Positions 4,301 to 64,000 are shown, numbered from the stretch's first letter. The stretch is DNA of 64,000 bases from Marsupella aquatica (GCA_973895155.1 OZ316891.1:21030169-21094168), one strand, 5' to 3'. The notes: generated from the sequence alone by a model not told the origin. Made by a program: numbers and translations.

Positions 4301-4380
4301 AAACCTAACCCTAACCCTAAAACCTAACCCTAAAACCTAACCCTAACCCTAACCTTAAACCTAACCCTAAACCTAAAACC
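4301..4380. repeat. Telomere-like CCCTAA/CCTAAA tract just upstream of the outer gag ATG
   Basis: aaacctaaccctaaccctaaaacctaaccctaaaacctaaccctaaccctaacc... directly before ATG 4389. Confidence 0.85.
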
Positions 4381-7300: not shown

Positions 7301-9067
7301 AGGCACAGAAAAGCCTAGATTGGTCAGAATGGGAAAAAGCAATTAACTCAAAATTGGATTCACTGATTAAACGCCAAGTGCTCATACCTATTGTCCCATC
7401 GCCAAAAGATACCCACTTAACAGACTATAAGTGGATATTCATGAAAAAGAGAAACGCACAAGGCCAAGTTGCAAGATATAAAGCACGCCTTGTCACGAAA
7501 GGATACACACAAATACCTGGGCGTGATTTTGACTTGACATACGCAGCAGTGATGGATGCAATAACCTATCAATACCTAGTTGGATTTACCCTAGGTCATC
7601 GACTACAAATACATCAAATGGATGTCGTAACAACATACTTATATGGATTACTGGATACGACCATATACATGAAAGCACCCCCAAAATTAATAAAATGACA
7701 CACATACCATATCCAGGGGGAGCATAAAACAAAGCAAAACCCATCCACATCCACATCTCTACCTTATACCACAAAAGACCCCAGGAATGGAAAACGGGGC
7801 ATGGTGGACCTATAGTCCATCAAACACCATGGAGTGGACCTATTGTCCTCCAAAAGAACGGACCTATTGTCCCTCCAATACATAAATCCATGCCTCTGGC
7901 CAAGGATGGATATCTTGTCCAGATTATGAGATCTTTATATGGACTAAAGCAAAGCGGAAGAATGTGGTATTAGAGATTTAGAGATGAAATGTTGATTATG
8001 GGTTTTACTAACGAAGACATTGCTCCTTGTTTATTCATTGCCATCTACGTATATGACATCAACCTATTTGGACACTTAACCTATTACAAAACATCATTAA
8101 GATACTAAACCGCGTATTTGAGATGGAAGACTTAGGCCAAACCCAATATTGTTTGGGCCTACAATTCAAACACCTATCTGATGGTATACTTTTACACCAC
8201 AACACTTACACTACAAAAATCCTCAAATAATTCAACATGGACAAGACACATACTCTAACTTCTCCTACGTATTCAAACTTGCAAATGTTATGGAAGTACG
8301 ATCTCTAGACAGAGACAAGGATGCATTCAGAAAGAGAAATGAAAATGAACCACTACTTGGTCCTGAAAAACCATACTTATCAGCAATAGGAGCACTCATG
8401 TTTCTAGCCAACCTGACACGACCAGATATTTCCTTTGCAGTAAACCTGCTAGCCAGACACAGTGCACAACCTACTATACGCCACTGGAATGGCATAAAAA
8501 GAATAATGCGTTATCTTCAAAGAACTATTGATATGGGACTATATTTCCCTAATAACACTAATAAGACCTTAATAGGCTATGCAGACGCTAGATATTTATC
8601 AGACCCAGACGATGCTAAATCATAGACTAGCTACGTACTTTTATATGGTGATACAGCCATTTCCTGGAAAAGCACTAAACAAACACTAACATGCACTTCA
8701 TCTAACCACGCTAAGATTATTGCACTATATAAAGCCAGCAGAGAATGTATTTGGCTAAGAAGAGTAACCAACCATATTAATACAAACTGCGGCTTACCAG
8801 CACTAACTGAGCCTACTACACTATTCGAAGACAATCAAGCATGTGTTGAACAGGTCTCGAAAGGATTCATCAAAGGAGACCGCATCAAGCATATCACACA
8901 AAAATTCTTCTTCACCCACGAACAACAAGGAGACACTAATCCAAGTGAAGACAATTGCGAGCAAAGACAACCATGCAGATTTATTCACAAAAGCCTTGAC
9001 TCCAGCATTACATACTATTCATTGTCAAGACATAGGCTTATGTAGACTATCAAAACTCAGAGATTAA
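4389..9067 (+). pseudogene. Disrupted gag-pol of the outer copia element
   Basis: Starts MTSIEKLNF...GKNYLSW; then RGG tract, LWHTRLGHPG, DICGPIESPSGPF and IRVDNAGEF (integrase), RYKARLV (RT), YLSAIGALMFLANLTRPDISFAVNLLAR, and DNHADLFTK (RNase H end). Many stops and frameshifts. Confidence 0.93.
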
Positions 9068-9076
9068 AATTAATAC

Positions 9077-15000: not shown

Positions 15001-15647
15001 CGCGTGAAGCATATAGCTCCAAAGTTTTTCTACACACACGAGTTACACGGAAAAGAGATCAATATTTTGCAGATTTCAAGTGCAGACAACTGTGCGGATC
15101 TCTTCACCAAATCACTATCGCCATCAGTTCACCACCGACACTGCCAGGCGATTGGACTGCGGAGCGTGCGACACATGATGACCGTGGAGGCTGCTGCTCC
15201 ACATGATGCTTGATGATGCTGACGACATGCTGCTGATGACATGATGTTGACGACCTACTGTTGAGACAGATGTTAAAACTAGATTTACTATAGCATTTGA
15301 CTTTATTTAATATTGACATTTATTACAACGAGGACTGTTAGGCTGCACTCTTTTTTCTTTAGCACTCATATTTTTTCTCTGCTACACTGGTAGAGTTTTT
15401 ACTAAGCTAGAGTTGATAAAGGTTTTTAACGAGGCAGTCTACCTCGCTTGTACTTATATCATGTATTTCCTATGAACATGATATAATAGGTATAGTCCAT
15501 GTTGTCTATATAGTTGTCACTATATATCCAAAGGGGAGTGTTAGACTCTACCTATGACCGGACGATCGGACCAGCCGGTCACCCGACCCCACTATATGTA
15601 CACACATTCCTGACTATACAGTTATCTATTGCATTCATTCCATGACA
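9077..15647 (+). mobile_element. Nested Ty1/copia LTR retrotransposon, Bianca-like (inner, younger element)
   Basis: 109-bp LTRs tgttagactc...catgaca at 9077-9185 and 15539-15647 (2 substitutions). Perfect TSD aatac (9072-9076 and 15648-15652). PBS cgttatcagcacg at 9186-9198. PPT aaaggggag before 15539. Confidence 0.97.
10553..15213 (+). pseudogene. Disrupted gag-pol of the inner copia element
   Basis: gag MTKLEKLTFPALDIDGSNYLEW; Zn knuckle CHECGMSNHLARNC; integrase DVCGPINPPSGPFCYFMVLIDAST...RVDNAGEF...RTKMGPQRQLGIYIGF; RT LYGLKQSG and YVDD; RNase H ADLFTK. Several stops (for example 12908-12910 and 14801-14803) and frameshifts. Confidence 0.95.
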
Positions 15648-15851
15648 AATACTTAACTCTAGATAACCATAAACTATTGTACTCTTATTTGTAAAGGTGC
15701 TTGTACTCTTTCTCTCGCAGGAGTATGAGAGGGTTTTAATGAGGCAACACCTACATAAGACCAAAGTACAAAATAGGAAACTTTTATTGGAGGACTTAAC
15801 TAATATAGAGTTGCTTGCATTACTCCCATAATACAATCAAGGGGGAGTCAG

Positions 15852-15987
15852 TGTTAGAATATGGCAGTTAAGTCACCGGGGTTACTTACCTAACCCCAGT
15901 TAGGATCCGATGTAACCCCTCTTATCACATACATAAACGTCACCCGAGGGAGAAGAGAACATTCAGTTGGAGAGTTCTACTTGAACA
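15852..15987 (+). repeat. 3' LTR of outer copia element
   Basis: Matches 2172-2307 and is preceded by the PPT. Confidence 0.95.
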
Positions 15988-16421
15988 CAAATGTTGTTTT
16001 CCCTATCAACCTCAGCCAGAACGTCGTTATTGAACATTATGCTGTGTCTGCAATGCCATTCCATTGTCGTGCGTATTACAGAGCGACAAAATTGTTACCT
16101 CATCACTTGCATGGTAAATTTATGATGTTTCAGATATCATTTGCTCCTGCTACGTCATTTAGGACAAAGTGTAGTAAGAATTGACAGGTGCAAATCAACT
16201 TATGGTTTGAAGGACAACACAAGAGTTAAGTCTGTCTTCCTTCCAAAGTTTCACAATAGGCGTCTCAGAGTGGACAGTAAGGAAAAGTTGTGGGACACCA
16301 GTTGTGCCCATCAAACACCTTATAACCAGACTTTATGGACCATTCCTTGCAGGGGGATATGCATTGACCCACGCCATAAGGGATGACTTGTGGGTACTCC
16401 TGCTCAGGCTTAGTTCTTTTG

Positions 16422-44560: not shown

Positions 44561-47154
44561 GGATAAATCGTTATTCCGAGAATGAATGAGGGAACAAGAA
44601 TTTACCAGGCTGCCCTTGACCAAAGAGGGTTTGGTCACAATAGGCTGAACTTAAAAATAAAATATTGGATTTATTTCACTTGTGTCACCAATGGGAGTGT
44701 TTTGTTGGTAATGGATGCAAATGAGGCTCAATTTAGAGTTTAGCCAATAAGAAAAATGAGGGGACAAGAAAGTACTATTATATATTTTTCGGTGTTTTCA
44801 CACCGGCACTTCATCCACTCATAGGGTTGCTTGAACAATTTTCCCCAAATGGTAATAAAAAGCATTTAGGAATTTGCACCTAGATAAATGAGCTCAAACA
44901 TATTCTTTAAGACTCCCTAAAAGTGTGAGTATCCCCAAAAAAAGAAAGTAAATAATTTGTCTTGTAGTGGTTACCCCTGAAAAAGATTCTCTTTTGAGAA
45001 AATTAATTAATCATTCCTTTCAAGAGAATGAATTTTTTCGTGATCACTTTAAAGCAAGCAAAAATTAGGTTTGGGTGACTTTGTACTGTCTTGTGCCTCA
45101 ATGTTTAGTCCTTTGCAAAGTGTATTCTCTTCAGTGCTTATTCCTTTACAAAGCGTTCGCTTCACTACTATCCCCACTTGTAATTTTTCTGTTAGACAGC
45201 TGTTTAGCTTCTAAACTACTTTGCATCCCTTTCCGAAAAATGGTGAGCCTCTCATGTTAGAGACAAATAAGTCACTCAAAATCATAAACTTAGGAAATAG
45301 AACTTTGAACTGTAGTTAAGAGATGAGGGGTTTGCATTTTCTGAAGTGTTGGTTTTTCACACCCCCTGGGATTCAGTCAAGCATTTGGAAGGAGATAGCT
45401 TAGGGTCTAGGTTTCCATAGCATATGAAAATTTAATTTAATATAACTTCAATGTAAGAAGAAGAACAACATATGTTAACAACAGATGGGCAAGATTGAAA
45501 AATAAATATAGATCTAAAGAGGGGGATCTAAAAACGAAAATTATAGCCTCTGGTTGGTTTTTTCCCCGGCCTTTTATAAACACCCTTTTATTTAATAATA
45601 AAAATATAATAATAATAAAAATAATAAATTGCAAACATCAAGAGGGGGGTAAAAAAGAAAATTATAAACATAAAGAGGGGTAAAATAAATTACATAGTTC
45701 AAAAATTCAAAGGATGCACCTTGCGTAAATTAAATTGAAATAAAAATACATATCAAAAATCTTAATAAGACAAAGTAACTTGAGTAGTCTCCCAAAGAAA
45801 TAATACCTATATGTGGTGCCATTAGAGTGTATGCCAATACATAGAATTATATCCCAAGGCATGTATCCATGAGGAGGAGGGAAGCCGAGATGAAGGAAAG
45901 GCACAGGCCCGAGACTGCCAGGAGGGGAAAATATCCTGAGGAGAAAGGAGGAAAGGCACAGGCCAAAATAACCCCTCACTAGCGTGGCCCGTCGATTTAC
46001 TGATTTAATTCTGCGTGACACTTGTCTGCATTAGAGCTGAGACTCCTGTCAACCATAAGTTTTTGAATCATGATTTGCCAGGTTTTCACTTTTCACTGAG
46101 TGACCCGTCCTCTCTTTGGGGGCCATGGCCTAGACGGCCCTTCGGTACCATGGAGGAAACCATCAAGCACCGTTTTGCTAAAGTAGGCAATTAAATTATC
46201 CACACATTAAATAGTAGTTCACATTGCAGCTGGTTTTGTGATTGATACTAATTATGGTTGCCTTGGTAAGTTTGGCAACTGTTTCAAATGTCAAACATTG
46301 ACTTGTCCATTTTTGAAAAAAAATTCTTTAGATTTGGAGGTCCATCTAGGCTTCAGTTTCTAGACAACAACCTCTAAAATAACATGGAGGTCCACGGATT
46401 AATTTACTTAGGGGGTCTCCATGACAATGTCTCTTATAAACACTAGCCCAAAACCCACCTTTCGATATCAACAATTGGTGAGAATAAAAACAAGCTAGTT
46501 CACAACTAGGGATGGTAAGTTTATGCCCCTGCCTGGCTAGAGTCAACTGCCTAGAGGGTTCATTCTAGACCATAGCCCTCTTCTCTTCCTGACTCTAAGT
46601 TAGATTCATGATTGTATTAAAAAGTGCTATGGCTTTGTGATGTAAAGCACCTTTCAGGGGATTTTCCAAGTTCTTGAGTCAATCTATACACACTATTATA
46701 TCCAATCCAGCCATTTAGTTTGTTTACGGCTTGCCATCTGGGCGGGAAGAAATCCTGGAGGTTAATTTAGAATTTTTTTGGGTCACAATTCAATTGGCCA
46801 AAACCACCTCTCAGAGAGCACTATGCCTTGCTGTCCGTGGCCCACCCTCACTAATCTGCAATGGGCTCAAAGCTCTTGAACAGTGTGAATGGGGAATTAA
46901 TGTTACTAACAATGACAGAGGAATAAGGCTGGGTAGGGTTTCACTTTAGTAATTAAGACTCTGACTAAAGCTTTGTGTTAACCCAGAGGTTTCACTCTAG
47001 ACTCTAACTCTAGCTTTGTGTTCGCCTCTTTTATAAGTAAGATTAGTATGCCAACCCCGGTTTGATGTGACGGGCAACTTGCCGAGTTGCCGGGCACGTA
47101 AACTCGGCATTTGCCGGCCTGAAATGCTCTCATTTGACGCATATTCATCATTAT

Positions 47155-47740
47155 TCCCCGGCTCGGCCCGAACTCCTCCCGGCCTCTTCCCGGACCCGGC
47201 CCGGCCCCCCCCCTACCTCTCGTCACCCGGCCCCGGCCCCGGCTTTACGCCCCGGCTTTACATCCCGGCCCGGCCCGGGTGGAGGAAGGCCCGGGTGGGG
47301 GGAGGGAGGAGGCCCGGCCTGGGTGGAGGGGGGCCCGGGTGGGGGGGGGGAGGAGGCCCGGGTGGGGGGAGGGAGGGGGCCCGGCCCGGGTGGAGGGGGG
47401 CCCGGGTGGGGGGGGGGAGGAGACCGGGTGGGGAGGAAGACGAGGCCCGGGTGGGGGGAGGGAGGAGGGCCGGCCCGGGTGGAGGGAGGCCCGGGGGGGA
47501 GGAGGCCCGGCCCGGGTGGAGGGGGGCCCGGGGAGGGGGCGGACGAGGGCCGGGTGGGGGGAGGGAAGAGGGCCGGCCCGGGTGGAGGGAGGCCCGGGTG
47601 GGGGGGGGAAGGAGGCCCGGCCAGGGTGGAGGGAGGCCTGGGTGGGGGGGAGGAGGGAGGCCCGGCCCGGGTGAAGGGAGGGGTTGGAGCAGGGAGGAGG
47701 GAGGCCCGGCCTGGGTTAAGGGAAGATAAGCCCGGGTTTT
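47155..47740. repeat. Left GC-rich subterminal repeat array
   Basis: Many copies of ggcccgg(cccgg)gtgg(a)gggg. Confidence 0.9.
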
Positions 47741-47939
47741 AGAGTTATGGATAAACTCAATTGAGATCAGCCATATCTGCTAATTTGGGGTTGTGACAAT
47801 TTCTCGCCTATCTAGTATTTCAACCCCGCTAAATATAGAACATTTTTTCATTCTAAATTGTATAAAACTTTGAGTTTTTCTCATTAGACACACTTCACTA
47901 AAAGTAGAGCACTCTATGTAAAGAGATAGAAAAGACTTT

Positions 47940-48330
47940 TGTGCGCGCGTGCTTGGAGGTTTTACTCGGCATGTGGTAATCCGCATAATAATTTTCTTCT
48001 TATCCCTTAACAATTTAGTGGTACTTGTGGGTATCGTGAAACAAATTTCGACAATGTTGACATTCATGTACGCATGTTTGGAGCTAAAGCTTGACATGTG
48101 ATATTTTACATGATTATCACTAATTGTCTCATATGTTTTCACTATATCGACAAATGCTCATTAAATTATAGATATCACATACGTCGGATAGGAATGTTAA
48201 CAACCAGAAAACAAAAGAGAACCGCTGTGCGCATGTTTGGAGTTTGACTCGACGTGTGATATTTCACAATAGTTTTTTTTTCTCGTTTTATTGTTGTTAC
48301 TTCAAAAGACTAACAAATAATCATTCAATT
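47940..48330 (+). promoter_or_regulatory. Upstream region of the transposase with three copies of a ~37-bp motif; inverted homolog of 55330-55710
   Basis: Approximate consensus CGCATGYTTGGAG-N5/6-CTYGRCATGTGRTA; ttggag cores at 47953, 48078 and 48237. Confidence 0.6.
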
Positions 48331-48398
48331 TTTATTAAGTGACTATGTTTAGTGACGTATAAAAAGTCACTTTGTGTGTAAAGTTCTTGTTTTCAATC

Positions 48399-51256
48399 AT
48401 GTCTTCCGAAGAAGATGAGTCGGGCAACTCATCAGCTCATTCTACTCCTATTAGGCACGGTGGAAATCACAATCAAGATCGTAGTGCAAAATTTTCCCCA
48501 GTGTGGAAATATTTTGAACGATGTGATACGCCATCAGCGTGTAATGATATTAATCGTATATATCGAAGATGCAAATTTTGTAAGAAATATACAACGCATC
48601 ATGCAACACGAGCAAAAGCACATTTGATGGGAAACATACACAAAGGAGATGCGCCACCTTGCACACACTTGTATGGAGTTGTTCACTTAGATGACATCAA
48701 TAGAATGTACAATGTCATAAAGGTTGACCCATCCATAAAGTACAAACGAAGTGATGGAAGTCATGTTTTGTTATCCATAAGAGGTCGTAGGTCATATAAC
48801 CCATCTTCCAATTCGCAAGCATCAACTCGAGACTCAAATTTTGTTGACCTCGATGAGGATGGAAATATGAGTCATCGAAGTAGAGCATCAAATTTTGCAA
48901 ACCCAATCATGGATGCTTATCAAATTCCAAATACAGCTCATTTGGATAAGCTGTGGGCCAAAGTTTTTTATTCAAGTGGTATTCCGTTCAATGTGTCAGA
49001 GAATCCTTTCTTCCGTGAAGCAGTCACAGAAACCTCGAAAGGGATTGTAAATGGATATTCTCTTCCGGGTATGCAAAATTTGAGAATGAAATTATTGGAG
49101 GAGGCTAGAGTTGATCTTACAAAGGACATGACAAAAACAATGAAGGAGGCAAAACCTTTTGGATATTCCCTTTCATCCGATGGATGGGAAAATATCCGAA
49201 GGGAACCTTTGATGAATGTCATGTTGTTGAGTTCAAAAGGAGATTTCTTTTTGGATAGTTGGAACGCTGCACAAGCCGACAAGAAAGATGGGAAGTATCT
49301 TGGTGACATGTGGTTAAAATACATAGATGACATTGGCGCCGATCACATCATACAAATTGTTACCGATGGTGCACCTGCAAATCGTGTAGCAGGTGAAGAG
49401 ATAGTCATGAAAAAATATCCGCATGTGACATGGAGTTGGTGTGCTGCCCACATTTTTAATTTGTTGCTAGAAGACATGTATGGCCACAAGAATGTTGTGC
49501 TAGATGAGCGGAAAAAAAATCCATTCAAAATGATTTTTAAGCACTTGAGATGGATAGTTAAAGCAGTTACATCATCACAAAAGTTGTCTGCAATATTTGT
49601 GAGGAAATCTGGTGACAGGAAGTTGTTAAATCCAAATGCAACGAGATTTGCAACAAATTTTTTAATGGCGCAGAGAGCATTGGAGCTAAGAGGAGTTTTA
49701 CAACAAATGGTCATTGATGATAAGTGGCAATCCTATCGTGATCGCCTGCCAGTTCGACCAAAGTCACAGGGGCATATGACGAGGGGAAAGGCAGACGAAC
49801 TTAAATCGTGGATACAGCAAGATACATTTTGGGCTCAAGTAAAATCTACAGTTGCTTTTTTCCTGCCGTTGGTGAAGATGTTGCGAGAATTCGATGGAGT
49901 TTCACCACAGTCTCCTTGGCTATATTGGAGCTTGAAAAAAGGAATAGCTAAACTAGAGGCGAGCATGGAGGGTTGTATATTAGTAACAGATTACTTAAAA
50001 CCAAAGATAATGAAAGTGTATATGGATCGACGAAAATTACTTACTACTGATTTCATGTTAGCAGTAGCATATCTAAATCCTCAATTTTTCTTCGATGAAG
50101 ATGAAGATGTGGCAGGAGATGCAGAACTGTATAGAGGCTTCAATGATTACGTTCGTAGATATGCAGAACACAAGGTGAAGGCAGGAATCAACCATGATCG
50201 AGATGTGACGACACTTATTTCTGACATCCAAATGCAGGCATTTGAGGCTAAAAAAAATTTGCCAAATTCATCGGTTGCAATTAGAGGAGCACAATCGAAT
50301 ATTGGGAAATTAAGTCCAGGAGAGTGGTGGTATTTGTATGGAGCTGATTACGCGGAGCTAAGATTGATGGCGAGAAGAATCACGCATTAACAAATGTGTG
50401 CATCTTCATGCAAACGAAATTGGAGTTCGTATGACTTTATCCATTTAAAAAGCCGTAATAGGTTGACCAATGATCGGGCAAAAGACTTGGTTTTTGTATT
50501 CACAAATTCGAGGTGCAAAAAGGGCTCACAAAGGTGAGAAACCCTCATACGTCTATATATAGACGATATGATGAAAGAACAACAATAAATGATGGCCCGA
50601 GGCCTACTTCCATAGAAGGATGTCACACTGAACAACATGGTGTTACATGTGCGGCTCTTGGAGAGGATGACGTGGAGGATTTTGATACAATTGATGATGC
50701 AGATGAGGCTTTGCAAGGATTATCATTACACACTGATAGTGATATGTTGACTCGTATTCCACCAGATACTGAAATAAGTGATGTTGGAGAATGGGAAGAT
50801 GAAATGGATTTAATGATGTTCCCTGCAATCGATGAGTCTCAAATTCAGGATGACGAGGACTACTCATTTGATGCAAACTTTGTAGTGCCTTCCCAACCAA
50901 ACCCATCCTTCACATACCCAACATTGAATCTACAAAATGATGTCCAAGCAAGTACTTCGTACTTATTTCAACGACGAGGTACTGCATCGGAGCTCTGTCC
51001 TGAGAGAACAACACCAACTTTGTTTGCGCAACCTGATGATGCACAGTGGGGACAACATGCTTCTCCAACAAAAAATATGTATGAAAGACAGAACATGACA
51101 AATCCATGTACATCAAACATACATGCCCGTGTTGGGGCATTTCAAGAATATCATAGCGCAGATCCGGTCCAATGGATGACAAGACAATTTCAATTTGATC
51201 GACAGTTGCAAGAAAATGAGAACAATAACACAAGGCACTTTTCGTCACAACCTTGA
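48399..51256 (+). pseudogene. hAT transposase (BED zinc finger, DUF659/DDE core, dimerization domain, acidic tail), inactivated
   Basis: VWKYF..CKFC..KAHL (BED), SSDGWENIRREPLMN, IVTDGAPAN, CAAHIFNLLLED, TRFATNFLM, YLNP, WWYLYG. Premature TAA at 50388-50390, then ASSCKRNWSSYDFIHLKSRNRL (the catalytic E of CERNWS reads K), a frameshift near 50510, and a tail ORF ending at 51256. Confidence 0.92.
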
Positions 51257-51368
51257 TATCTATTTAGGTATTACATGCTAGTACTATACGACAAACTATG
51301 ATATACTATGCCGGATTGTGCATGTCCTATGCAATAAAATATGCTATACTAAACATTGTGTGTGCAAT

Positions 51369-53294
51369 CTACTCATTTGGGTTCTCATTGTCTTGCGCTT
51401 CTGCTTTCACCTCTGCCAGTTGTTGACGACGACGATGGCGACGAATAGATCGCTGCATGTTTTGCTCATCTGTTGTTGGTCGATTGGCCATGGCATATTC
51501 CTTCCACTGTTGGAATCTACCGCTGAATAGCAAATTGTCAAAGTCACCATCTGACAAGTTATATTCATTAACTGTGAAGTTGTCAATGGGCCTTGAATCG
51601 ATCTGTGTCATTGCAATACTCTCTTGAGTCATGTCTTCAGTGTCTTGCTGTGTCTCCATTGGTGGCATTTGTTTCAACAAACCTCGTTGCTCATACTCTC
51701 GTTCATGAAATGGTTTCCGACACCAACATTTTCGGCTCTTCTTCATCCACCGAAACAAGCAAGCATGATGCCATAAGTGACCGCATGTTCCCAAAATGGA
51801 AACAGATTCAGGACCCCATGGATACAAGCACCAAGTACATCTTCCATCCTTTTCTCGAACAAATTGGGCCATACTTTCATCGGTCTTCCACTTATCAAAA
51901 AATTTCTCTACATCTTCTAGATCCTCCTCCACATCCGGAAAAAGATGAGATTCTCCTGTAGGATCAATCATTTGCAAGTTCATATAATTATAGTTCTTGC
52001 ATCTTGATTTTTCCTTGTCTGACTGCCCATCCACCTCAACAATGTTCATTTGCTCGATCTCCTCTTGCAGATTGCTTATGATCACCTCTTGTGATGTAAC
52101 CTGATTCTTCAAATCCTGAATGACTCTATCTGCCTCTTAAACTTGTTTCATTTGACTACATTGACCATCCTTTTGAGCAAGTTGTTTGTTGAGCTTTGCG
52201 ATCTCCTCCATCTTGTCGTACAGTTGCACCTTGTATTCCTTCACCTCCGAAGTAATCACACTTTGAATGAGCATTTTTTCCATTGCTTTCATGTTCAAAA
52301 CATTATCTTGCAACTTTGACTTGTAGTAGTCAATGCTGCCAGCTTCACAAAGGTCAAGACAAAACTTTGTGCGGAGATTGTTCTCGATCAAATGACCAAT
52401 CTCTGTGCCCAAACTCTTGCACACAATCTCCATGCTCAATGATTCTTTCTTTGGATCCAAAATACCAGTGAACTTTCCTGGTAAATTGTTACTTGTAGAT
52501 GCTGCAATGTTTGATGTTTTGTCCACATGTTTTGGTGCGCTGAAACTTTCAGATTTAGTGAAGAGTCGTTCCAGTGCAGTCGGCTTATCTTTCTGATGTG
52601 CATGAATATCTTGCACATCATGTATCTTTCTTTTTGACCCTTTGTTGGTTGCTTGACTCGACATATCTTTTGTAGTATTTTTGTTGTTCTTGAAACCTGC
52701 AATGTCCAGGACAGACTGATGCACAGAGTGAGTCATCTTGCCCTCTTCTGTTTCCCAACGGTAATCCACCTTCCACTTGAGAATAAATTCAGCAATTAGG
52801 AGTCGGAGAAAAGGAGAATAAACCGAGCTTGTTTTGCCTTGCGCTTTCTTTGGAGCATACTCTCGAAATCTTTGCTGCCAATGCTTGCCAATTTCCACAT
52901 GTTTTACCTTGGACATTGTGTACTTCTCTTGCATCCAAGACCTTGTGGCCCATAAATTTTCATCATCAAAAATGATTTTCATCCATTTTTGGAACTCCAC
53001 ACGTGACATCAATATCTCCAATTCTTTGGCGTTGATGGGCCATTCATTGTGAGGAGGTTTCACATTTGGCATTGTGATATTCCATTCAACATCCTTGGTG
53101 TCCTCATCCATTTTGGTTATGCTTTGCCCTGCATGATTGCTACTCATTCCAATGTCCTCGTCTATGGGTTGAGAATCTTCTTCAACGTATTGATCCTGAG
53201 ACCAAAGGTGTAAATTCTGAGCAGGTTGCAAATATAAATATGAAATCTTTTTAGGTTTTTCCTCCTCGTCGGATTCCAAATCCCATTTTCCCAT
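51369..53294 (-). pseudogene. Coiled-coil plus C-terminal RING-H2-variant protein (~640 aa, putative E3 ligase) with one in-frame stop
   Basis: ORFs 52137-53336 and 51369-52112 are in the same frame and separated by one TAA (...QMKQV*EADRVIQDLKNQV...). RING-like CTWC-x14-CGHLWHHAC-x10-CWC. Likely start MGKWDL at 53294, after a splice acceptor at 53306. Confidence 0.75.
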
Positions 53295-53478
53295 CCTTGC
53301 AGATTCTACAATAACAAAAACATTTTTAGCATTCATTCACCATACACCCTTCAAGATAAAATTGATAACAAAATACAATGAAGCAAAATGAGTAATACAT
53401 TTAATTCATATGACATGATTAAATAGATAATAGTTTATGACATCTATCATTGTCATTCACGATGAAATTATGAAATCC

Positions 53479-55137
53479 CTAATCTCTTAGATAAGGACTA
53501 TTGTGCTGAACTAATCTACAATCTTGGAATGTCCTCATCATTCTCAAACTCCAATTAATACAATCCATTCTTTTTTTGACATCAATGGCCATCATGTCAC
53601 GTATCATAATATCCAATTTAGGGCCATGCTCTCTAGCATTCCAACCCCTATTCAAATATCGTGTCATTGGGGTCATTCCATCCCAATTTTCTATGAGTAA
53701 TGTCTCAAAGACATTGCCCAAAGCATATATGTCAGTTGCTTGACTGTACTCTGTTGGATCGGAACGAACTAGCTCAGGCGCCAATTGTGGATATTGTTTT
53801 TGATATGCAACTGCTTTCTCTGTAGGGGTGGGCCACATTCGATTTTGTGGTAATGTGCATTGTGACTTGTGTTTGGACAACCCAAAATCATATATTCCTA
53901 CATAAATTCTAATTGCCAAATCATCCTCGTGATCAAAGTAAAGAAGGATGTTCCCAAAATGAAGATCACAATGGAAACGGTCGTGTGCATGCAAATATTG
54001 CAAGGTCTCCAATAGAGCCATAGCAATCCCCAAACGATGTTCCAAAAAGAGTTTCTTTTCGGATATGAATGTCACATCAACCTCAGAAGTGGATTGTGTC
54101 TTCCCTTTGCTCTTACTCCATTTCTCACACTTATCTATGAAGCTTCCCAAGTCTCCTCCATTGTAATGGTCATAGATAAGTTTCGGTGGATCTTCGATAG
54201 TCATTGCCAAGGCCCCAATTATTCCTTTGTGATTCAAACCTCCCATGAGCACTTCTTGTAAGGCATCTGTTCGTCTCTTGTGCCGGTCTCCATCCTTAAA
54301 TCGTTTTGTAACCAGTGTTGCATTTCGAGGAATCAATGGGCAATCCAATATATGACATATGAACACATGTCCTTGGATGCCGCTTCCAATGCGATGCAAA
54401 TTTGATACTTGCTCCCTCCTCAAGAAATGAATACTCCTGACCATGGGAACAACTCGTGATGGACGCGTTCCTCTATCTGCAACCTCCACACCAATCTCTC
54501 CAAACTGCACGACCTTGCTCGCATATTTGACATTACTCTCCGATTTGGCCATTGCTAACTCTTTGCTCCATTTAGCTAGCAAATCTCTTCTATGTGTGTA
54601 TAGCCCAGGAACTCCAAGCATGACGGCCCCAGCCTCATCCAAATTGGATTCCAACTTGTCCCAAAGATTTACCGCAAAGTTCAACGCCAAATATTCAACA
54701 AATCCACCCGGCTTCTCAAAATCACTTATTAAGGCAGCAATTTCATCTCGGGTCATGTCCTCTTCTTTCTCCACAGTCTCACGCATGCAACGTCCCATGT
54801 CATTTAAAAGGTTTTTGTAACCCTCTGCTCCATGCATAGCATACTTCCTCTCAAAGCCATCCTGCTCATACTGTGCTGACAAAGTGTAGGGATATAGAAT
54901 CTTTTTCCAAATCGCAACTAACACATGTTGCCTTCTCTCTTTCAATGCAGCACCAATTGCTCCTCCTCTATGTTTCCGTTTCCCTAAGGTTTTGCCATGT
55001 TTACAAATTTCTAAGGTTTTGTGAGCATTCCGTAGAGCATTGAGGGCATGAGGATCTGGTTGATATCCCTCGTTTAGCATGGTATTCATTGCCTCAAAAA
55101 GTTTCATATACTCTACACTCACATTTGCATCGGCCAT
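53479..55137 (-). CDS. Protein kinase (ePK fold) with unknown N-terminal domain, 552 aa, intronless, inside the hAT element
   Basis: IGSGIQGHVF (Gly loop), LVTKRF (catalytic Lys), LQE, HCDLHFGNIL (catalytic loop), DFGLS, LAPE, TDIYALG. Basic GKRKHR segment in the N-terminal half. First ATG (MADANV) is at 55137. Confidence 0.9.
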   Translation of the reverse strand: MADANVSVEYMKLFEAMNTMLNEGYQPDPHALNALRNAHKTLEICKHGKTLGKRKHRGGAIGAALKERRQHVLVAIWKKILYPYTLSAQYEQDGFERKYAMHGAEGYKNLLNDMGRCMRETVEKEEDMTRDEIAALISDFEKPGGFVEYLALNFAVNLWDKLESNLDEAGAVMLGVPGLYTHRRDLLAKWSKELAMAKSESNVKYASKVVQFGEIGVEVADRGTRPSRVVPMVRSIHFLRREQVSNLHRIGSGIQGHVFICHILDCPLIPRNATLVTKRFKDGDRHKRRTDALQEVLMGGLNHKGIIGALAMTIEDPPKLIYDHYNGGDLGSFIDKCEKWSKSKGKTQSTSEVDVTFISEKKLFLEHRLGIAMALLETLQYLHAHDRFHCDLHFGNILLYFDHEDDLAIRIYVGIYDFGLSKHKSQCTLPQNRMWPTPTEKAVAYQKQYPQLAPELVRSDPTEYSQATDIYALGNVFETLLIENWDGMTPMTRYLNRGWNAREHGPKLDIMIRDMMAIDVKKRMDCINWSLRMMRTFQDCRLVQHNSPYLRD

Positions 55138-55329
55138 GTTCTCAAGTAACCACAACAAGTTGTAGGACAAAGAATAGGCGCTTACGGAGTGTGTTGGCTG
55201 CTTGCCGAGGGTATGGATGATGCAAGTACAATAAAGCTGGATCAATAATCCTGAAAAGTCATTTCACACTTTGTGTTGGTACCAATAATACCCAAGCAAT
55301 GAAATTTTAATATTTGTTCAATTTTTTAT

Positions 55330-55710
55330 TCGTTTGTTTAGTACTTTGAAAGTAACAACAATGAAGGGGAAAGACAACTATGTGAAATACCACATGCCAA
55401 GCCGAAACTCCAAGCATGCGCACAAAAGATGTCTTTTCCTTCAAGTTGTTACATTCCTATTCCAATCTATGTGAAACCTATAGTTTAGATGTCATTTGTA
55501 AATGTTGTGGAAATATTTACAAGGAATCGAGATATCCATGCAGAGTACCACATGCCGAGCGGAAACTCCAAGCATGCGTACATGAAAATCTCTATCCTAG
55601 AAAATACTCCACTCAATTCACAAATCACACTAAACTGTTAAGGCAATATTAGGTTCTCTCATACGAAATACCACATGCCAAGCATAAGCTCCAAGCATGC
55701 GCATACGTGA
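55330..55710 (-). promoter_or_regulatory. Upstream region (predicted 5'-UTR intron) of the cargo genes with three copies of the ~37-bp motif
   Basis: taccacatgccRagc..ctccaagcatgcg with ctccaa cores at 55408, 55566 and 55689; aligns by eye with the reverse complement of 47940-48330. Confidence 0.6.
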
Positions 55711-55848
55711 GAACACTAATATCCCTCCAAATTAAAACTAAATGTTAAAGTCATACATGGCAAAGCATAGCAAAAAAAGACTCAAAACAATTCAAAAACT
55801 AGTGAACTAAACTCAAAACTAAGCAAAACATAAGCAAAAGCAAGAAAA

Positions 55849-55936
55849 ACTTACCAAAAGCCTCTCCTACAAAACAAGCAAACTTAGTTGAGAAGTTAGT
55901 AATGAGAGAAAGTGAGGAGACCTCCTCACTTTATAG
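55849..55936 (-). promoter_or_regulatory. Putative TATA box and non-coding first exon for the cargo transcript
   Basis: Minus-strand CTATAAA at 55936-55930, a pyrimidine-rich leader, and donor TG|GTAAGT with GT at 55854. Confidence 0.5.
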
Positions 55937-55939
55937 CCC

Positions 55940-56575
55940 TGGTCCCGGTCTCATCCCCCCCACCCCACCTCGCGAGCCGACCCCGGGTGGCCGAGCCCGA
56001 TCCCCCCCGGCGGCTGCCCTCCTCGCGCGACCTAACCCTAAAGCCCCCCCCGGCCCGGCCCACCCCCGCCTGACCCGGGGGGGCTTTAGGGACTGGGGCG
56101 GAGGGGGGGGCTTTAGGGTCCGGGGCGGGAGGGGGGGCTTTAGGGCCGGGAGGGGGGGGTCCGGGCCGGGGGGGGGGGTCCGGGCCGGGGGGGGCTTTAG
56201 GGTCCGGGGCGGGAGGGGGGGGGGGGGAGCTTTAGGGTCCGGGCCGGGGGGGGGCTTTAGGGTCCGGGGCGGGAGGGGGGGGGAGCTTTAGGGTCCGGCC
56301 GGGGGGGGGGGCTTTAGGGTCCGGGGCGGGAGGGGGGGGGAGCTTTAGGGTCCGGCCGGGGGGGGGCTTTAGGGTCCGGGCCAGGAGGGCTTTAGGGTCC
56401 GGGCCGGGCGGGGGCCTTTAGGGTCCGGGCCGGGAGGGTGAAGGGTCCGGGCCGGGGGAAGTTTAGGGTCCGGGGCCGGGAGGGAAGAGGACCAGGAGTA
56501 CTCAGGCCGGGACCGGATTTACTCGGGCCGGGACCGGATGATGACGACCGGGAGAGACCGGGTGTCGGCTTGCCG
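55940..56575. repeat. Right GC-rich subterminal array with TTTAGGG-containing units
   Basis: (g)n-ctttagggtccggg repeated more than 10 times between about 56080 and 56475. Confidence 0.9.
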
Positions 56576-56673
56576 GTTGACGGCCTTAAAACGGCCTATT
56601 TGCCGGGCAAGTCCAAACCGGGATGCCAACAACTTACTGTAGATGTGTAAATAAATGTAAGATCTTTTATTTC

Positions 56674-57060: not shown

Positions 57061-57759
57061 TGGCTGTCAGCTGATCACAGAGCGAAGTCTACCTCTCAAT
57101 GATTTGTGATTCAGTAGGACCACTTAGTACGTTTCTAATACACCAAAGAATGAATCCATCGCTTCCCAAAATCTGGATCATGTCCTCTTCGACACAGCAA
57201 AAAAATTGAGAAGTGTGCTTTCGTACTGAATGTCCGCCTCAATCCTCTCCTTTGCCAACTGTATGGCCAACTGTATGGCCCGCTGTATGGAGTTGCCATG
57301 GAGTCACCTCTCGACTCACCTGCCCTCAGCAGGTTGAATACGTGCCGCAATTAACTCCATTGTGATTGTTTTCATTCCTTGAAAACGAATGGCAAGTTGC
57401 ACGAATTCCGTGTCACCATAATGAAGGCAGTGGCCAGAGACACCATTGCCAGTGCACCTGCAAACATGAATTCCTGTATAGCTCCAGGAATACAGGCACA
57501 GACAGCCATGGAGCCAATTCACCAATTTTCTGGACACGGTATGAATGAGATTTCTGACATTTCGATTGCATGAGCATTAAGACTACCGAAAAATACGTAT
57601 CTCGATTCTTACCAGCTGAAAAATTTGGTTGAGAATTAGTCTTGACCCCGGATTGCGGAAATGCACGTCTGGGAAATGGAAAACCTGTCGGAGGGAGAGA
57701 GACTTAGGGAACACTGTAGCCAGAAATGGTAAGATCCGCGGGGTTGAATTTTGGGGTCA

Positions 57760-58176
57760 CAGTGATAGTTTAGGTGGCGTTGGGGGATGTGAAAAACATG
57801 GAAATCGCAAGCCTGGCAAAGGGGGAAGAATGGGTTTCGCTGACAAGTTGATTCCAGGGAACCGAGGAAGGGGGATATTCTGTGGGGGAAGAGTTGGCTT
57901 GCAAATGCAGGCCTTCTAGGGGCTTCACTGGAGGATGGAGAATCCGGACACTCCGATGCCTGGGGTGGTGACTTCGCTCGGAAGTCGGGGCAAGGAGAGC
58001 TTCGGGAGTTTGGGCAAAGACAGAGAAGGCATCGAAACATAAGGGAGACACGGCAAGTCTGGTCCGAGCGACACTTTATACTCAAATTCACTGGCAGACG
58101 AGGCCTCTGCGACAATGCACAGAACCAACGCCAGTGCACCCATCAACGTACAAGGCTTGGTGCTAATCGCAGGCAT
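57760..58176 (-). pseudogene. Secreted Pro/Leu/Lys-rich protein gene, copy A (83-aa ORF, Pro-rich frame continues past stops)
   Basis: MPAISTKPCTLMGALALVLCIVAEASSA (signal peptide-like) and LPKLPKLSLPRLP. After stops the same frame reads PTLPPQNIPLPRFPG...PILPPLPG. Confidence 0.55.
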
Positions 58177-59909
58177 GGTTAACGATCGACCAACTTACCT
58201 CAAAATATCAAAGTTCCCCCACCCGCAAAACACATTATGTCATTCAAGGTTTAATTTAGCTCCTTTGATAAGGTTTTGGGCCCCCATTATTTTCATACCG
58301 TGAAGGTGTATAATGCATTCTATGAACCACGCTAAACTTGTGCGCCATGGTCGTAGCAGCTTTTGACTCCTCAATGTAAGTTAGCCCACAAAGAATCCCA
58401 AAGGGCAGCTCGAAAGCAGAATCTACAACGTACTGCGGAGTCTACCCTGGACCGATCTGACTCAAAAATGCGCAAGATTGCTCGATCGGTTGGGCTAAAG
58501 CGTGATCCATATGGTGCTACTGCAGTTTGATAATATGCTATTGTGAGGCGGGTTGCTAGGTGGTTTAGAGACTCCTTCTTCCTGATTTCAACTCCACCGT
58601 CTTACCGTCGCGGACTCACTACCACTTCTCTCCTGACCCCAGAACCTTTGCTAACTTCTCCACTCTCTGCCACGCAAGGAAGATATTAATTAATGAGCGC
58701 GCAAGAAAAAGTATTTCAGGTATACATAAAATCCTCTAGACGCTCAAAGTCTGAACCGGACGTACTGTTCCCACTGAGACTGGCCTCTTGGATACGGGCT
58801 TGGATATCGAAATGAGCAGGACAGCTATGGAGCAGGACAGCCATACGGAAGAGTGATCGGACCTCATCAAGTTGTCATGAGGACCGATTCATACAGTTAG
58901 TATGAACAGAGCAATGTCTTATTCACAATTATATGAATCAAAGTACTTGGTTACCAGATCGATGTGCGATTGATGAGTGACTGAAGCGCTTGTGACTAGA
59001 AGTTCAGGAGCCATATACCTCACTGTCCTTCGGAGTAAGGTACCACATGAGCGGGCGCGCGATTATTTCGAGGCAAAATCATAACTTATAACCAATGAGC
59101 CCAGTGCTGTCTGTCCTTACTTTTGAAAACGCATGTTTACAGCTTTAGACGATTATACCATTTGGGTTGGAGCCCAGTGTTAATCCACCACGCATTGAAA
59201 CTATATATTGCTCTTGTGACACACGGATCATTCTGATGGGAGTTCAAATCTTAGGCCAACAAGCTGGCTAGGAAGACTGATCACCTTCGTGTCATAAATT
59301 ATGTATCCAAATTCAGGGACAGTTCGTCATAGATGTAGCGCGTTTTGAACGATTTCGGAGAGGATCTTGGTACAAATTTTCTTGTACTTTACATCCAAGT
59401 CTGGGGAATTCGGGTAAATACCTCTTTGCTGAAGTCTGGGTCCTTTGAATTTACTTCAAGCCCATTTGCAACCTTGGGAAACACGGACAGTCTAGTTCAA
59501 CTACTAGGCATTCATGTTTGGGGATCACTCTGATGAATGCGTTCAAGAGCGGGTTCAAGAGCGGGTTCAAGAGCTTTAGAAGCATTGCATTTAAACTCTT
59601 TCTAAGCTGGAGATTGCCTGCCAGCAGAACTTTTCAAGAATTAATTCGATCCGTATACGTCTTCAAGGAATGACCTCATTCGATTGGAAGTGAGAACATC
59701 ATGCAGTTTAGGAGACAGTGCTTGGTCGGGACATTGCGATATGTGCTGCCCAGTTTTCAATCGAGCAAGTTGTATAGCCCGCAAATGCTTTGCCGCTGGA
59801 TGTAGCCAGGTAGCATGCTGCATGATACGTCCGAAGAGCGAGTGAACTCGAGCCTAAAACTATCAATGCCAGATACATCTACGGTTTCATAGGACGTCGA
59901 CCATAGGCA

Positions 59910-61249
59910 GTGAGAGGAGGATTCATGGATTGCAAGAGCTCGCCCAGAAGCAGTTTGGGGATCTTGGCTCGGGTAACGGTTCACATGTTCAAGGAAAGTG
60001 CGAGGCTGACTTCATCGGCACTCGTGTTGCTGCCGTTCACTATGATGGTGTTTGACGGTGATATGAGATACCACAATCATAGTAATTCTTTAGTTGAGGC
60101 AACTGATTTGAGTGGGGACCTCAGTAGTCTGTGTGCGGCTATCGTGGACAGCACTGGGTACCCTTGCATTGAGCACACGGTGCAAACAGCGGACGGCTAT
60201 GTGCTCGGTCTACAGAATATCCCCTGCGGATTACATAATTCCGGGGAAATGGTCACCAAGCGCCATCCAGTCTTTTTACAGCATGGTCTAATTGAGGATG
60301 GGGATGACTGGGTGCTCAATTCTCCAGAAGAGGCGTTGGCGTACTTGATGGCGGACGCAGGCTTCGATGTGTGGATCGGAAACACTCGCAACACCCGTTG
60401 GACTCATGGGCATGTGTCTCTCTCTAAGCAATCTCAGGATTATTGGAACTGGAGTTGGGATGAGCTTGCAGCTTATGACCTGCCCGCATCTCTCTCCTAT
60501 GTGTATCGAATGACAAACTATACCAAACTATGCTACGTTGGCCACTCCATGGGGACGTTGACAGTGCTTGCAGCACTCTCTGAGGGGAAATCTGAGGTAG
60601 TGGAGAGCCTTGAAGCAGTCGCATTGCTAAGTCCGATTGCTTATGTGGGTAATATTTCCTCACCCTTGGTACAGTTGGGGGCCAATCTCTACATAGACAA
60701 GATTTTCCAAGAATTTGGTCTCACTGAATTCTCCTTGTCAAATGCTGTGGGGTTAGAGTTGCTCTCGTTGGCCTGTGTCACACCGGGTATTGAGTGCGGA
60801 GACTTACTTTCAGCAGTAACAGGGTCCAATTGTTGTCTCAACACCTCTCGAATACCCTACTACCTGCAATTTGAGCCTCAATCAACATCCCTCAAGAACA
60901 TGGTTCATTTTGCCCAAATGGTAAGGAGGGGAACATTTGCGAAGTACGACTACGGTGAAGAGGAGAACAAGGTCAGATACAATCAGCCTTCTCCACCACC
61001 CTACGACGCGTCGAACATAGATTCATCGATTGCCATGTTGATTGCGTATGGAGGCAAGGATGCAATTGCTGATTCGGAAGATGTGACTAGACGTCTTCTC
61101 CCATTACTTTCGCCTGGTAGGCTCCTTGAAGTTCTTTACCTGCTGACTATGCGCACTCAGACTTCATTCTCGGGAATACAGCATACGAGGACCTGTACCC
61201 CCATCTCATCTCCTTCTTCCGAACTCACCACGTCTCGCAGCTAGAGTAG
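59910..61249 (+). pseudogene. Acid/triacylglycerol lipase (alpha/beta-hydrolase, gastric-lipase-like), intronless, with a frameshift before the catalytic His
   Basis: VQTADGYVL, VFLQHGL, DAGFDVWIGNTR, WSWDELAAYDLP, YVGHSMG nucleophile elbow, GGKDAIAD. The DYAHSDFILG motif is out of frame after about 61143 and ends at TAG 61247-61249. True start uncertain (ATG candidates at 59925, 59985 or later). Confidence 0.88.
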
Positions 61250-62969
61250 TCTGTACTAGGGTTGATTACTCTCTTTCTAGTTAAATTCTTGCAACTCAGT
61301 GAACCTGTGTTCAGAGTATTCAATCTTCAAATCAGCCCTGAGATGATAAGTGTCAGTCGAGCACTAGAGATTAGAACGAAGATAAGTAGCATTGCAATTG
61401 AACTTCTTTTGGCCTGGTCAGCTCGTACTGTGCTTGCTTGGGCAAATTGTGGGAGTCCAAAATAAGCTGTGTTGCAAGTTTGAAAAGCTAAAGTTCGTCG
61501 GGGTTGCAAATCTCTGTGGACTACATTCAGAGAGGAATAAAATGACTGCAGCTCACATTACTTACCGTCAGTTGTTATATTGTACTTGTGTTCTTTCTTC
61601 ATGTTATTGATCTAATCTTCGGATCTCTTGTGTCTATTTTCTTCCCTCTTTCTCTTTGCCATATCTCTTTAAACCACCACTAGCCATATAAAGGAAGAGT
61701 CCAAGACTTCGCTGTTTTTCACATTCTTATGTGAGATGTTGTTCCACAACTTCAGTGAAAAATACTAACAATGGTGAAACCTGGTGTATCTAGATTTTGT
61801 CATGGACAGTGGCGCTATATGAACTTTGATCATACATTCTCATTATGTAGAAAATGGCTGGATATGTCACTAAATACTTCAGTAAAATTGCAGTTTGCGA
61901 AGGGAAGTTTTTTCGAGCACTTTTGTAGCTTTTGGAAACAATGAGAGCATTTTGTAGTTTCTTTCAAATTTCCAAGTAGATTTGCATTAGGTCTCCCTAG
62001 AATCTGTGATGGAGAGAACCTGAAGGACTGGCAATAGACCTTAGTTAGAAGCGAGTCATCAAGCAATTGTTCGATCCATTGAGGTAGGCGCCAGTTTCAA
62101 TGGACTCATCAGTCGCACTGTCCGGAAGTGCACGACTCTTATAATCAATCCAGACGTCAGATCGACTCATAATCAATCCAGACGTCAGATCGATAGAGTT
62201 GGACAGTCAGAACTGTCTCATACATAGTGTACCCTCAGCTGTAGAGCAGCTACTTTTTCAACGCATGAAATGGGCGACCTACGTACGAATGAATGATCGT
62301 GACCAGATCATGATCGAGTAAGTCCTAACTTTCAGAAATTCTACCGCACGACTCGTCTCACCAGGAGACATTAATATACTCTATACAATCGCAAACAGAA
62401 AATACAGGAATGGATGATTGTCCCCTGCCCTTGTTAAGTATTTGTCAATTAAGTTGATTCCTCGATGAAAGTCCTCGATCAATTTTAATCGGTTCTGTCT
62501 AGCAGCTCATGAAGTATGAACCGAGCAATGGTCCAGATCGCAAGGACCATTTAAAGAGTCCCACGATCGACTCTGAAAGCTCGCCCCACAACGCAATGCT
62601 TCATCGATCAAATTCAGGAGCCGTGCTATGCAGACCAAGATGAATCTAACAATGCCCTGAATAGCGGTCAACCTCTACACCGGACTAGCTCGTCCCCGCA
62701 TAATTTTGTTCAGGTTGACTGAAAATGAATTAAGTTAATAAAGATGATCAATCAGACTTACCAGCAACGATTGAACATTCCATACATCGAGTCCCGAAAC
62801 CGTTGTCTCAATTACTATTCTACGCTCATTAGGGTTCTATTATAAAATCCTCAGCAAGGATCAGCCTTCCAAAATATAGCTCTCTCGTTGATTATAGCAG
62901 AGGTTGGGGACATAGAGTTCACCACAATTCAGCGAAGCCCTTCCAGAAGTTTGTGTTCGTAGGGACTGA

Positions 62970-63380
62970 TATTTTGAGGTTGGTCGATCATGAACCATGG
63001 CTGCGATTAGCACCAAGCCTTCTTTCTGTCGTTCTCGTCTGCCAGTAAATTTGAGTACGAAGTGTCGGTCGAGGTGCCAGACTTGCCATGTCTACCTCTT
63101 CTGTCTTTGTCCAAAATTTCGAAGCTTTCATTGGTCCCCACTTCCCAGCAAAGTCGCCACCCCAGGCATGGATTCTCCATTCCTCGAGTGAAGGCCCTAG
63201 ACGGCCTGCATTTGCAAGCCAACTCTTCCCCCCACAGAAGGAACTCCTCCCCAACAGAAGAGGTCCCTTACTCGGTTCCCTGGAATCAACTGGCCAGCAA
63301 AACCCATCCCGCCCCCTTTGCCGGGCTTGCCATTCCCAGATTTTTCACATCCCCCAACCCCACCTAATTCTATCACTTGA
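62970..63380 (+). pseudogene. Inverted paralog (copy B) of the Pro-rich secreted-protein gene, signal peptide deleted
   Basis: gatattttgagg...aaccatggctgcgattagcaccaagcctt...ctcgtctgccagt...ggcctgcatttgcaagccaactcttccccc...cggttccctggaatcaact...tttttcacatcccccaac matches the reverse complement of about 57760-58210. Confidence 0.8.
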
Positions 63381-64000
63381 ACCTCAAAGGTCAACTCCTT
63401 GTAGGATGTTACCATTCCGGGCTTCACTAGGGCATCTCAAACACGGTCAATTTTCACGAATGAACCAGGCTCGGGAGTGTTTCAGGCAGAGGCAGCAGGA
63501 AGGACTGGTTGGGCACCAAATGTGAGGCCGGACTGTCATGCCTGGGAGTCATGACCGAAAAGGAGGGCCTGACTGCTAGTTTGGATTCTTTCTTTCAGAG
63601 GGAAGTCCCATATCACATGCTCAGTTTTGGGGAATAAACACCCTAAAATATAAATAAATCATATTTTTAATCACTTGTTTACCTCTAACTTTTGGGAAAT
63701 CATACTCTTGGAATATTCACACATTTCATTTTAGAAAACCCTATAATCCTTATAGTTCTCAAAAGTGGACCCCTAATGTTCTTCCACAAAACTTGGCACG
63801 TGATTGGTCGGAAGGCAAAAAGTGAGGACCCCCAGGGCAAGATGGTGGCTTGAGGCCCATCCCCAAGCCAATCCAGCCATACCTCCCTGTATATGTCTTC
63901 AGAGGAGTTCTTGACAGTCATGTGTCTTAATATGGGGTTACCACACTTCTTGTAGGCCTATCTACTTCGTGCACCTGTGGGAAGGGGTCCATATTTGTTG

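Follow-up and report, generated by a model that had tools for sequence, protein, structure and literature searches.

Duplicated blocks of three predicted hairpins before both transcription units of a liverwort hAT transposon: candidate cis-acting RNA elements

The locus studied here lies in a 64,000-nt stretch of the Marsupella aquatica genome (GCA_973895155.1, OZ316891.1:21030169-21094168; below, the window), in which a transposase gene and the cargo genes that converge on it are each preceded by a region with three copies of one motif, the second region being a mirror image of the first. What such a pair of regions does for a transposon, and whether it does so as DNA or as RNA, is the question that this arrangement raises. 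Control of eukaryotic cut-and-paste transposons is usually ascribed to DNA sites and small RNAs, and the first-pass annotation of this DNA read the motifs as selected protein-binding sites, analogous to VANC targets, that co-regulate the two units, or else as relics of very long terminal inverted repeats (TIRs). In the present study, the motif arrays were found to be real, selected and more unusual than that annotation supposed, and their function is a predicted one.

The carrier of the motifs is a plant cut-and-paste transposon of 9,567 bp (about 9.6 kb; 47056-56622). Its ends were defined by the sole combination of target-site duplication (TSD) and TIRs recovered, an 8-bp duplication (47048-47055, repeated at 56623-56630) flanking perfect 9-bp TIRs that begin with CCCGG; hAT TIRs usually begin with CAG or TAG. 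By every feature tested (8-bp TSD, short TIRs, DUF659 transposase) the element belongs to the hAT superfamily, and it shares with other DUF659/BED hAT transposons the GC-rich subterminal arrays and, on its transposase homologs, the PF05699 domain. Two features set it apart from the hAT transposons described in the literature searched: a pair of conserved accessory genes that converge on the transposase gene, and leaders with arrays of predicted structure. CTCGG-like words are also present near its termini. The ends and genes of the element are as follows.

47048..47055, no strand, left TSD of 8 bp, identical to 56623-56630
47056..47064, + strand, left TIR, 9 bp, perfect
47267..47723, + strand, left G-rich subterminal tandem array of CCCGG-containing units, likely a transposase-binding region
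48399..51256, + strand, hAT transposase gene with BED-like finger and DUF659 (Pfam PF04937, E 4e-29), broken in this copy
51369..53294, - strand, cargo gene 2, encoding a RING protein with a compact N-domain, a coiled coil, a RING-H2 domain and a C-terminal domain with an Arg-rich helix
53479..55137, - strand, cargo gene 1, encoding a protein kinase (PF07714, E 2.5e-14), open frame of 552 aa
56077..56484, + strand, right GC-rich subterminal tandem array
56614..56622, - strand, right TIR, 9 bp, perfect
56623..56630, no strand, right TSD

The lesions of the transposase gene are a stop at 50388-50390, CERNWS read as CKRNWS, and a frameshift near 50511, the site of an insertion in other copies of the element. 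Its homologs (801-934 aa, 59-69% identity) carry PF04937 together with PF05699, a C-terminal dimerisation domain, and the named homologs of both the transposase and the RING protein come from the liverwort Calypogeia fissa. The kinase has eight homologs at 44-71% identity and, by PDB matches, a TK/TKL-like catalytic domain that is not a CDK, preceded by an uncharacterised part of about 230 aa; scans with the kinase profile confirmed none of 116 candidates in viral contigs and none of 61 in genome contigs. The RING gene has an internal stop at 52137-52139 in this copy, other copies differing at 52139. The Arg-rich helix of the RING protein is kept in all four sequences that reach the C-terminus and is predicted at a pLDDT of about 88. 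The N-domain of this protein is also modelled confidently (pLDDT 86); it found no Foldseek match and, in a fold search of 48,161 chains, a best Z of 2.7, by which novelty of the fold is not shown; the full model gave coiled-coil matches only. A likeness to ribosomal eS10 (PDB sequence match, E 0.6) was unsupported by the fold search and was dropped. The kinase and RING domains were the only ones found in the cargo proteins, and both accessory proteins are preserved across 33-71% identity. In four public runs from three organisms, all 30 bins of the element were covered, with many variant contigs (summed read depth in these runs is not copy number), and run X5 held one diverged contig of 7,334 nt in which pieces of the RING and kinase genes are spaced as in the element, so that the layout is a family trait.

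Self-BLAST recovered the two regions as inverted copies (47945-48317 and 55702-55333) with 70.9% identity over 378 columns (E 2e-34), and their alignment scored 280.5 against 30.6 +/- 3.8 in 200 shuffles, bearing out the mirrored arrangement. Each block has three motifs, starting at 47946, 48071 and 48230 (+) and at 55701, 55578 and 55420 (-), with spacings of 125 and 159 bp on the left and 123 and 158 bp on the right. Pattern searches gave five matches in the window and none in 100 shuffles, each pattern used missing one of the six units; a covariance model found all six at 66-75 bits and otherwise two weak matches (11-14 bits), with no further block copy in the 64 kb. As first proposed, the motifs probably belong to the element and not to a second insertion, and dispersed copies of the kind that an independent MITE would leave were absent from the 64-kb window. 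Among metagenome contigs the motif scan hit 74 loci with one match each, none BLAST-similar to the element or its proteins and all judged to be chance, and viral contigs gave no match.

The conserved unit is 48 nt long, exceeding the 33-nt motif first described, and 25 of 56 columns are invariant when the six units are aligned with their flanks. The earlier statement that motifs are better conserved than spacers holds only modestly between the two blocks, where identities are 72/90 in the core, 39/54 in the basal stem and bulge, 121/190 in the spacers and 39/52 in the tail (Fisher p 0.043 for motif versus spacer, with borders set post hoc); it is in other families that the contrast becomes extreme, as described below. 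Since the spacers are homologous as well as the cores, a single block of about 370 bp was duplicated. Within one block, the spacers are mutually unrelated (z below 2), so only the tip is common to its three hairpins.

The blocks begin 889 and 920 bp, and finish about 1.26-1.29 kb, inside the element ends, and the sequence between the ends and the blocks is unalignable (score 23.5 versus 21.8 +/- 3.3). Their origin could be either an ancestral long TIR, as in maize MuDR, or one leader copied to the opposite end. MuDR resembles the ORF layout seen here in that its two genes converge, each being driven by sequence that the two ends have in common (excerpt of PMC3440606); its promoters lie in TIRs of about 215 bp. 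Here, by contrast, the repeat lies 0.9 kb inward, shows 71% identity and has a predicted RNA structure, the superfamilies differ, and long, near-identical terminal repeats of the MuDR type were not found, the perfect TIR being only 9 bp.

The six 48-nt units, or tips, are these.

47940..47987, + strand, apical unit L1
48065..48112, + strand, apical unit L2
48224..48270, + strand, apical unit L3
55660..55707, - strand, apical unit R1
55537..55584, - strand, apical unit R2
55379..55426, - strand, apical unit R3

On the sense strand of each gene, the minimum free energy topology is identical in all six: a basal stem of 4-8 bp, a 6-nt 3' bulge, an 8-bp stem, a 2-nt UG bulge, a 4-bp stem and a loop of 3-6 nt. 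The invariant core comprises the 8-bp stem, the UG bulge and the G/A-U/G-C upper stem. Across the units, 105 of 108 cells are paired, with double changes at 6 of 18 pairs, and none of 500 shuffles matched either the paired percentage or the covariation score, although the units are three left-right pairs rather than six independent events and related sequences can beat such shuffles. Weaker measures were reached more often (six double-changed pairs in 13/500 shuffles, the number of pair types in 338/500), and controls slid along the sequence were 19-50% paired. Unprompted, RNAalifold gave the same fold, at -19.2 kcal/mol on the sense strand (covariation term -2.35) against -4.0 on the antisense. 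As single-stranded DNA the tips fold weakly (-5.5 to -8.0) and keep the shape in 3/6 cases. With flanks of 56 nt, L3 and R3 are individually not significant (z -0.5 and -1.0). Neither block had a match in Rfam 15 at E up to 5, four weak matches lying elsewhere.

What had been called spacers are the lower stems of long predicted hairpins (70-196 nt), each capped by a tip.

47928..48299, + strand, left array of three predicted long RNA stem-loops (MFE: 47928-47997, 48012-48167, 48198-48299)
55348..55727, - strand, right array of three predicted long RNA stem-loops (centroid: 55727-55640, 55636-55482, 55456-55348)

Folding z-scores of the blocks are -4.6 (left) and -9.6 (right) in sense, versus -1.4 and -5.2 in antisense. 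In windows of 406 nt, the left block reached -5.9, the right -9.7 and the right antisense -6.6, while all other window-strands of that size in the element (about 34-35) lay above -3.8. A finer sliding scan at 180 nt (55 windows, 15 shuffles) failed to set the blocks apart, with z between -0.3 and -2.7 across them and reaching -4.4 in other parts. Windows of this size cut the hairpins; windows holding a whole block gave the signal.

The lower stems have diverged in a way that preserves pairing. Double changes in the spacer stems kept the pair in 13 of 15 cases (null 7.5, P 0.004) and in 11 of 14 (null 6.6, P 0.016) in the two comparison directions, and over all changed spacer pairs the kept fraction was 18/36 (P 0.012), with a borderline 17/28 left to right (P 0.06). 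In a strand-neutral alignment of the arms, G-U exceeded A-C oppositions by 45 to 17 (P 0.0005). Right-block variants in the public runs (40 listed of 100) comprised 19 at unpaired positions, 16 that keep a pair and 5 that break one, against 15.0 breaking expected (P 5e-5). The pairwise compensation, the G-U-compatible single changes confined to one strand and the pairing of spacers into long stems together point to RNA structure. Pairing on the sense strand is under selection, and the RNA structure is very probably the selected trait of the blocks.

The tips, in turn, are conserved across families. Contigs matched at 80% likeness in X5 and X6, both runs of organism C, are stacked on the tips only, with peak summed depths of 11,132 (R1), 1,697 (R2) and 13,794 (R3) in X5 and of 8,642, 1,267 and 14,865 in X6, against 2-63 in the spacer bins; R2, at about 1,100-1,700, lies below R1 and R3 (about 8,500-14,900). 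Ten of the 16 listed pieces from these runs are 47-50 nt long and coincide with a unit, and three joints connect two tips within one contig. The spacers there drop under 80% identity and the tips are kept. Loose-end consensuses on the two sides of R3 keep a 6-nt bulge and, by eye, add five of five pairs to the basal stem in X5 as well as in X6, the two runs differing by a single change and a double change; built from different contig sets at low agreement (0.56-0.72), they give a hint of an extended basal stem.

How the arrays would enter transcripts is suggested by a scan for promoter and splicing signals.

47861..47867, + strand, TATA-like box upstream of the left block, predicted promoter
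48308..48339, + strand, CTAAC word resembling a branch point, with an AG acceptor; predicted 3' end of a leader intron
48358..48364, + strand, second TATA-like box, between the left block and the transposase ATG
55251..55252, - strand, predicted splice acceptor of the cargo leader intron
55849..55854, - strand, consensus donor GTAAGT, predicted start of the cargo leader intron, which would hold the right array
55930..55935, - strand, TATA-like box of the cargo unit, predicted promoter

The splice donor of the left leader is weak, and the duplicated block extends into the branch-point-like tail. The two leaders contain 12 and 18 upstream ATGs, which would need to be spliced out or bypassed. From the TATA-like box at 48358, a transposase mRNA free of the hairpins could be made.

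The reading that we favour, on sequence evidence and at a probability of roughly 0.55, is that the blocks are cis-acting, protein-bound RNA elements that co-regulate the transposase and cargo units. Transcription of both would start from the TATA boxes at 47861 and 55935 and place them within 5' leader introns, and the hairpin arrays in the nascent transposase and cargo transcripts would switch the two units jointly. The lower stems would serve as scaffolds, and a protein would read the invariant core and the 6-nt bulge of the tip. That the two convergent units have a regulator in common, as originally suggested, stays the best reading, and the motifs are indeed selected, being kept across diverged families. 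That they are DNA sites of VANC type is not supported, the 48-nt units showing compensated pairing.

A covarying scaffold, an invariant bulged tip and three repeats are the look of protein-binding RNA elements such as TAR/7SK and RRE/CTE (excerpts of PMC6189040 and PMC4829213). The resemblance to HIV TAR/7SK, RRE and CTE, again going by excerpts, extends to a predicted leader stem-loop, a U-led bulge with an A-U pair two steps above, long stems with repeated sites, and a candidate Arg-rich partner. In TAR and 7SK the arginine-sandwich geometry has a bulge pyrimidine able to form a triple with an A-U pair of the stem (excerpt of PMC6189040). The tips have a bulge U and, two pairs higher, an A-U pair, both invariant in 6/6, which would fit this layout by analogy; the second bulge base is G, and in 3/6 tips the pair directly over the bulge is G-U. 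The proposed likeness concerns working principle and not sequence homology, and the element differs in its extra 6-nt bulge, its three copies, its setting in a plant DNA transposon and its TK/TKL-like kinase.

As to the ligand, the most likely candidate would be the cargo RING protein. Through the Arg-rich helix conserved at its C-terminus, it would deliver E3 ligase activity, and perhaps that of the kinase, to the RNA and chromatin of the element itself. That this protein is the ligand, in an anti-silencing or activation loop, is proposed tentatively, and the helix may be merely a nuclear localisation signal. The outcome would be a positive, anti-silencing or processing feedback with Tat/TAR or Rev/RRE logic. 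In its fullest form, which is possible with the odds against it, this would amount to a Tat/TAR- or Rev/RRE-like circuit in a liverwort cut-and-paste transposon, in which a RING E3 encoded by the element would use its Arg-rich helix to bind the three hairpins on each nascent leader and, together with the element's kinase, would modify host transcription or silencing machinery in cis.

Against protein-bound RNA elements, the main rival is a cluster of small-RNA precursors resembling miR820, in which Dicer-like enzymes would cut the lower stems, the tip would be a processing signal and the small RNAs produced would dampen either silencing genes of the host or their own element. Hairpins of 70-196 nt agree with this, 19 left and 46 right 21-nt registers of the lower stems stay within the duplex limits of 5 mismatches and a bulge of 3 nt (excerpt of PMC12594335), and there is precedent in miR820 of rice CACTA elements, also a fold-back RNA within a plant DNA transposon, which targets OsDRM2 (excerpt of PMC3459959). 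It is nevertheless unlikely: of the roughly 21 positions in a passing duplex, 4-13 differ from one block to the other on the 5' arm and 3-12 on the 3' arm, and the lack of a conserved duplex is a point of difference from miR820; cross-family conservation lies on the tip, which has a 6-nt asymmetric bulge and at least seven variable columns in any 21-mer, and fails the bulge rule; and no target in the 64 kb searched beats control 21-mers (3.0 versus 3.5). Alternatively, the structures might act through host factors or in trans, in the splicing or export of leader introns or as decoys for Dicer or dsRNA-binding proteins, with no ligand encoded by the element. The placement of both arrays between predicted donor and acceptor, the block running into the branch-point-like tail and the upstream ATGs in need of removal or bypass would suit this, and retroviral CTEs recruit host export factors directly (excerpt of PMC4829213); the weak left donor, the lack of an Rfam family match and the two accessory proteins kept across 33-71% identity, which ask for a target on the element, make it decidedly unlikely.

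At the DNA level, the motifs would be imperfect inverted half-sites for the BED finger or a cargo protein. Such sites have counterparts in the VANDAL/VANC and Spm/TnpA anti-silencing systems, where accessory proteins go with clustered, co-oriented motifs in non-coding parts, here three per block; VANC21 motifs are of this kind (excerpt of PMC5735166), transposases can be sequence-specific activators (excerpt of bioRxiv 10.64898/2026.08.24.746577), and the invariant core letters (25/56 columns) and the CTCGG-like words near the termini fit as well. Known motifs, however, are DNA words of 8-10 bp in the excerpts of these two sources, whereas the element has a 48-nt covarying structure and a cargo with kinase and RING domains only, and half-sites leave unexplained the paired double changes, the strand-specific G-U excess and spacer pairing over 50-60 bp. 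DNA sites by themselves are therefore highly unlikely, although the motifs may have a combined DNA and RNA role. Readings of the motif as an RY/B3 site, an E-box, an snRNA USE, a Helitron hairpin or a U12 donor were considered as well and set aside. There is, finally, a very slim chance that the blocks are neutral relics, either decayed long TIRs or small fold-backs inserted twice. The symmetric positions (889 and 920 bp from the ends) and the pairing of old fold-back arms by descent would be expected of these, and descent from long TIRs may explain the origin of the blocks. As an account of their maintenance it is largely refuted: the apex is conserved and not the ends, the sequence from ends to blocks is unalignable, the window holds no extra copy, and under neutral decay G-U and A-C oppositions should be equally frequent and compensation no commoner than chance, contrary to the data.

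In the literature searched, from which subscription journals were largely absent, no account was found of a plant DNA transposon with an RNA element of this kind, nor of this kinase-RING cargo. A compensated structured RNA, duplicated before both units and common to diverged families, implies an RNA-level layer of control, and the long hairpins have been kept though they would be expected to invite silencing. If the full Tat/TAR- or Rev/RRE-like circuit exists, RNA-addressed anti-silencing would join DNA-motif proteins (VANC, TnpA) and miRNAs of transposons as a third route. The system is small and testable, consisting of a 48-nt RNA and two cargo proteins, one of which has a domain that is modelled with confidence and has no fold match, and may provide a new pair of RNA and protein for tethering in plants. 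More broadly, it bears on the ways in which transposons target copies of themselves and so evade silencing.

The transposon carries four features of concern here:

48336-48372, short inverted repeat directly upstream of the transposase ATG
52671-53099, minus strand, N-domain of the RING cargo protein, analysed by structure modelling and by comparison with the PDB and Pfam
53306-53313, minus strand, clean predicted splice acceptor, 12 nt ahead of the ATG of the RING gene
56077-56484, right subterminal array, with a repeat unit that includes TTTAGGG

A sequence scan of the 143-bp gap between the kinase stop codon and the RING gene found neither a TATA box nor a splice donor, and together with the predicted acceptor this points to an arrangement in which both cargo mRNAs may arise from a single promoter by alternative splicing. 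On the transposase side, the short inverted repeat encloses acceptor candidates and a second TATA-like box. The N-domain of the RING protein was modelled with confidence (pLDDT 86, pTM 0.83), the best-scoring of 48,161 PDB chains in a fold comparison reached a Z of 2.7, and Pfam gave no matches for this domain; it is a second candidate nucleic-acid binder.

The TTTAGGG of the right subterminal array is telomere-like. The G-rich strand is the same in the left array (47267-47723) as in the right, and so the two are not mirror images. Contigs from the public sequencing runs X2 and X4 fuse the two arrays (47682 to 56433), omitting 8,750 bp, and possibly represent a deleted, non-autonomous form lacking genes and hairpins, a weak case because the short side of each joint is just 25-26 letters and lies inside repeats.

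Elsewhere in the window, inverted arms of about 500 bp (57715-58210 and 62967-63426, 70.7% alike) enclose a lipase-like ORF of 445 codons (59907-61244), an arrangement that may represent a further TIR element that has captured a gene. There are also two related copia-type retroelement stretches (5795-9185 and 11702-15988), which share 66-68% identity; in the second of them a single stop splits integrase and RT. A short, telomere-like TAACCC-type tandem array lies at 4300-4380.

For homologs of both cargo proteins (records P0014 and P0035; 44% identity for the kinase, 34-38% for RING), the longest contig is given as 5,391 nt in each case, which suggests that the kinase-RING gene pair may be old.
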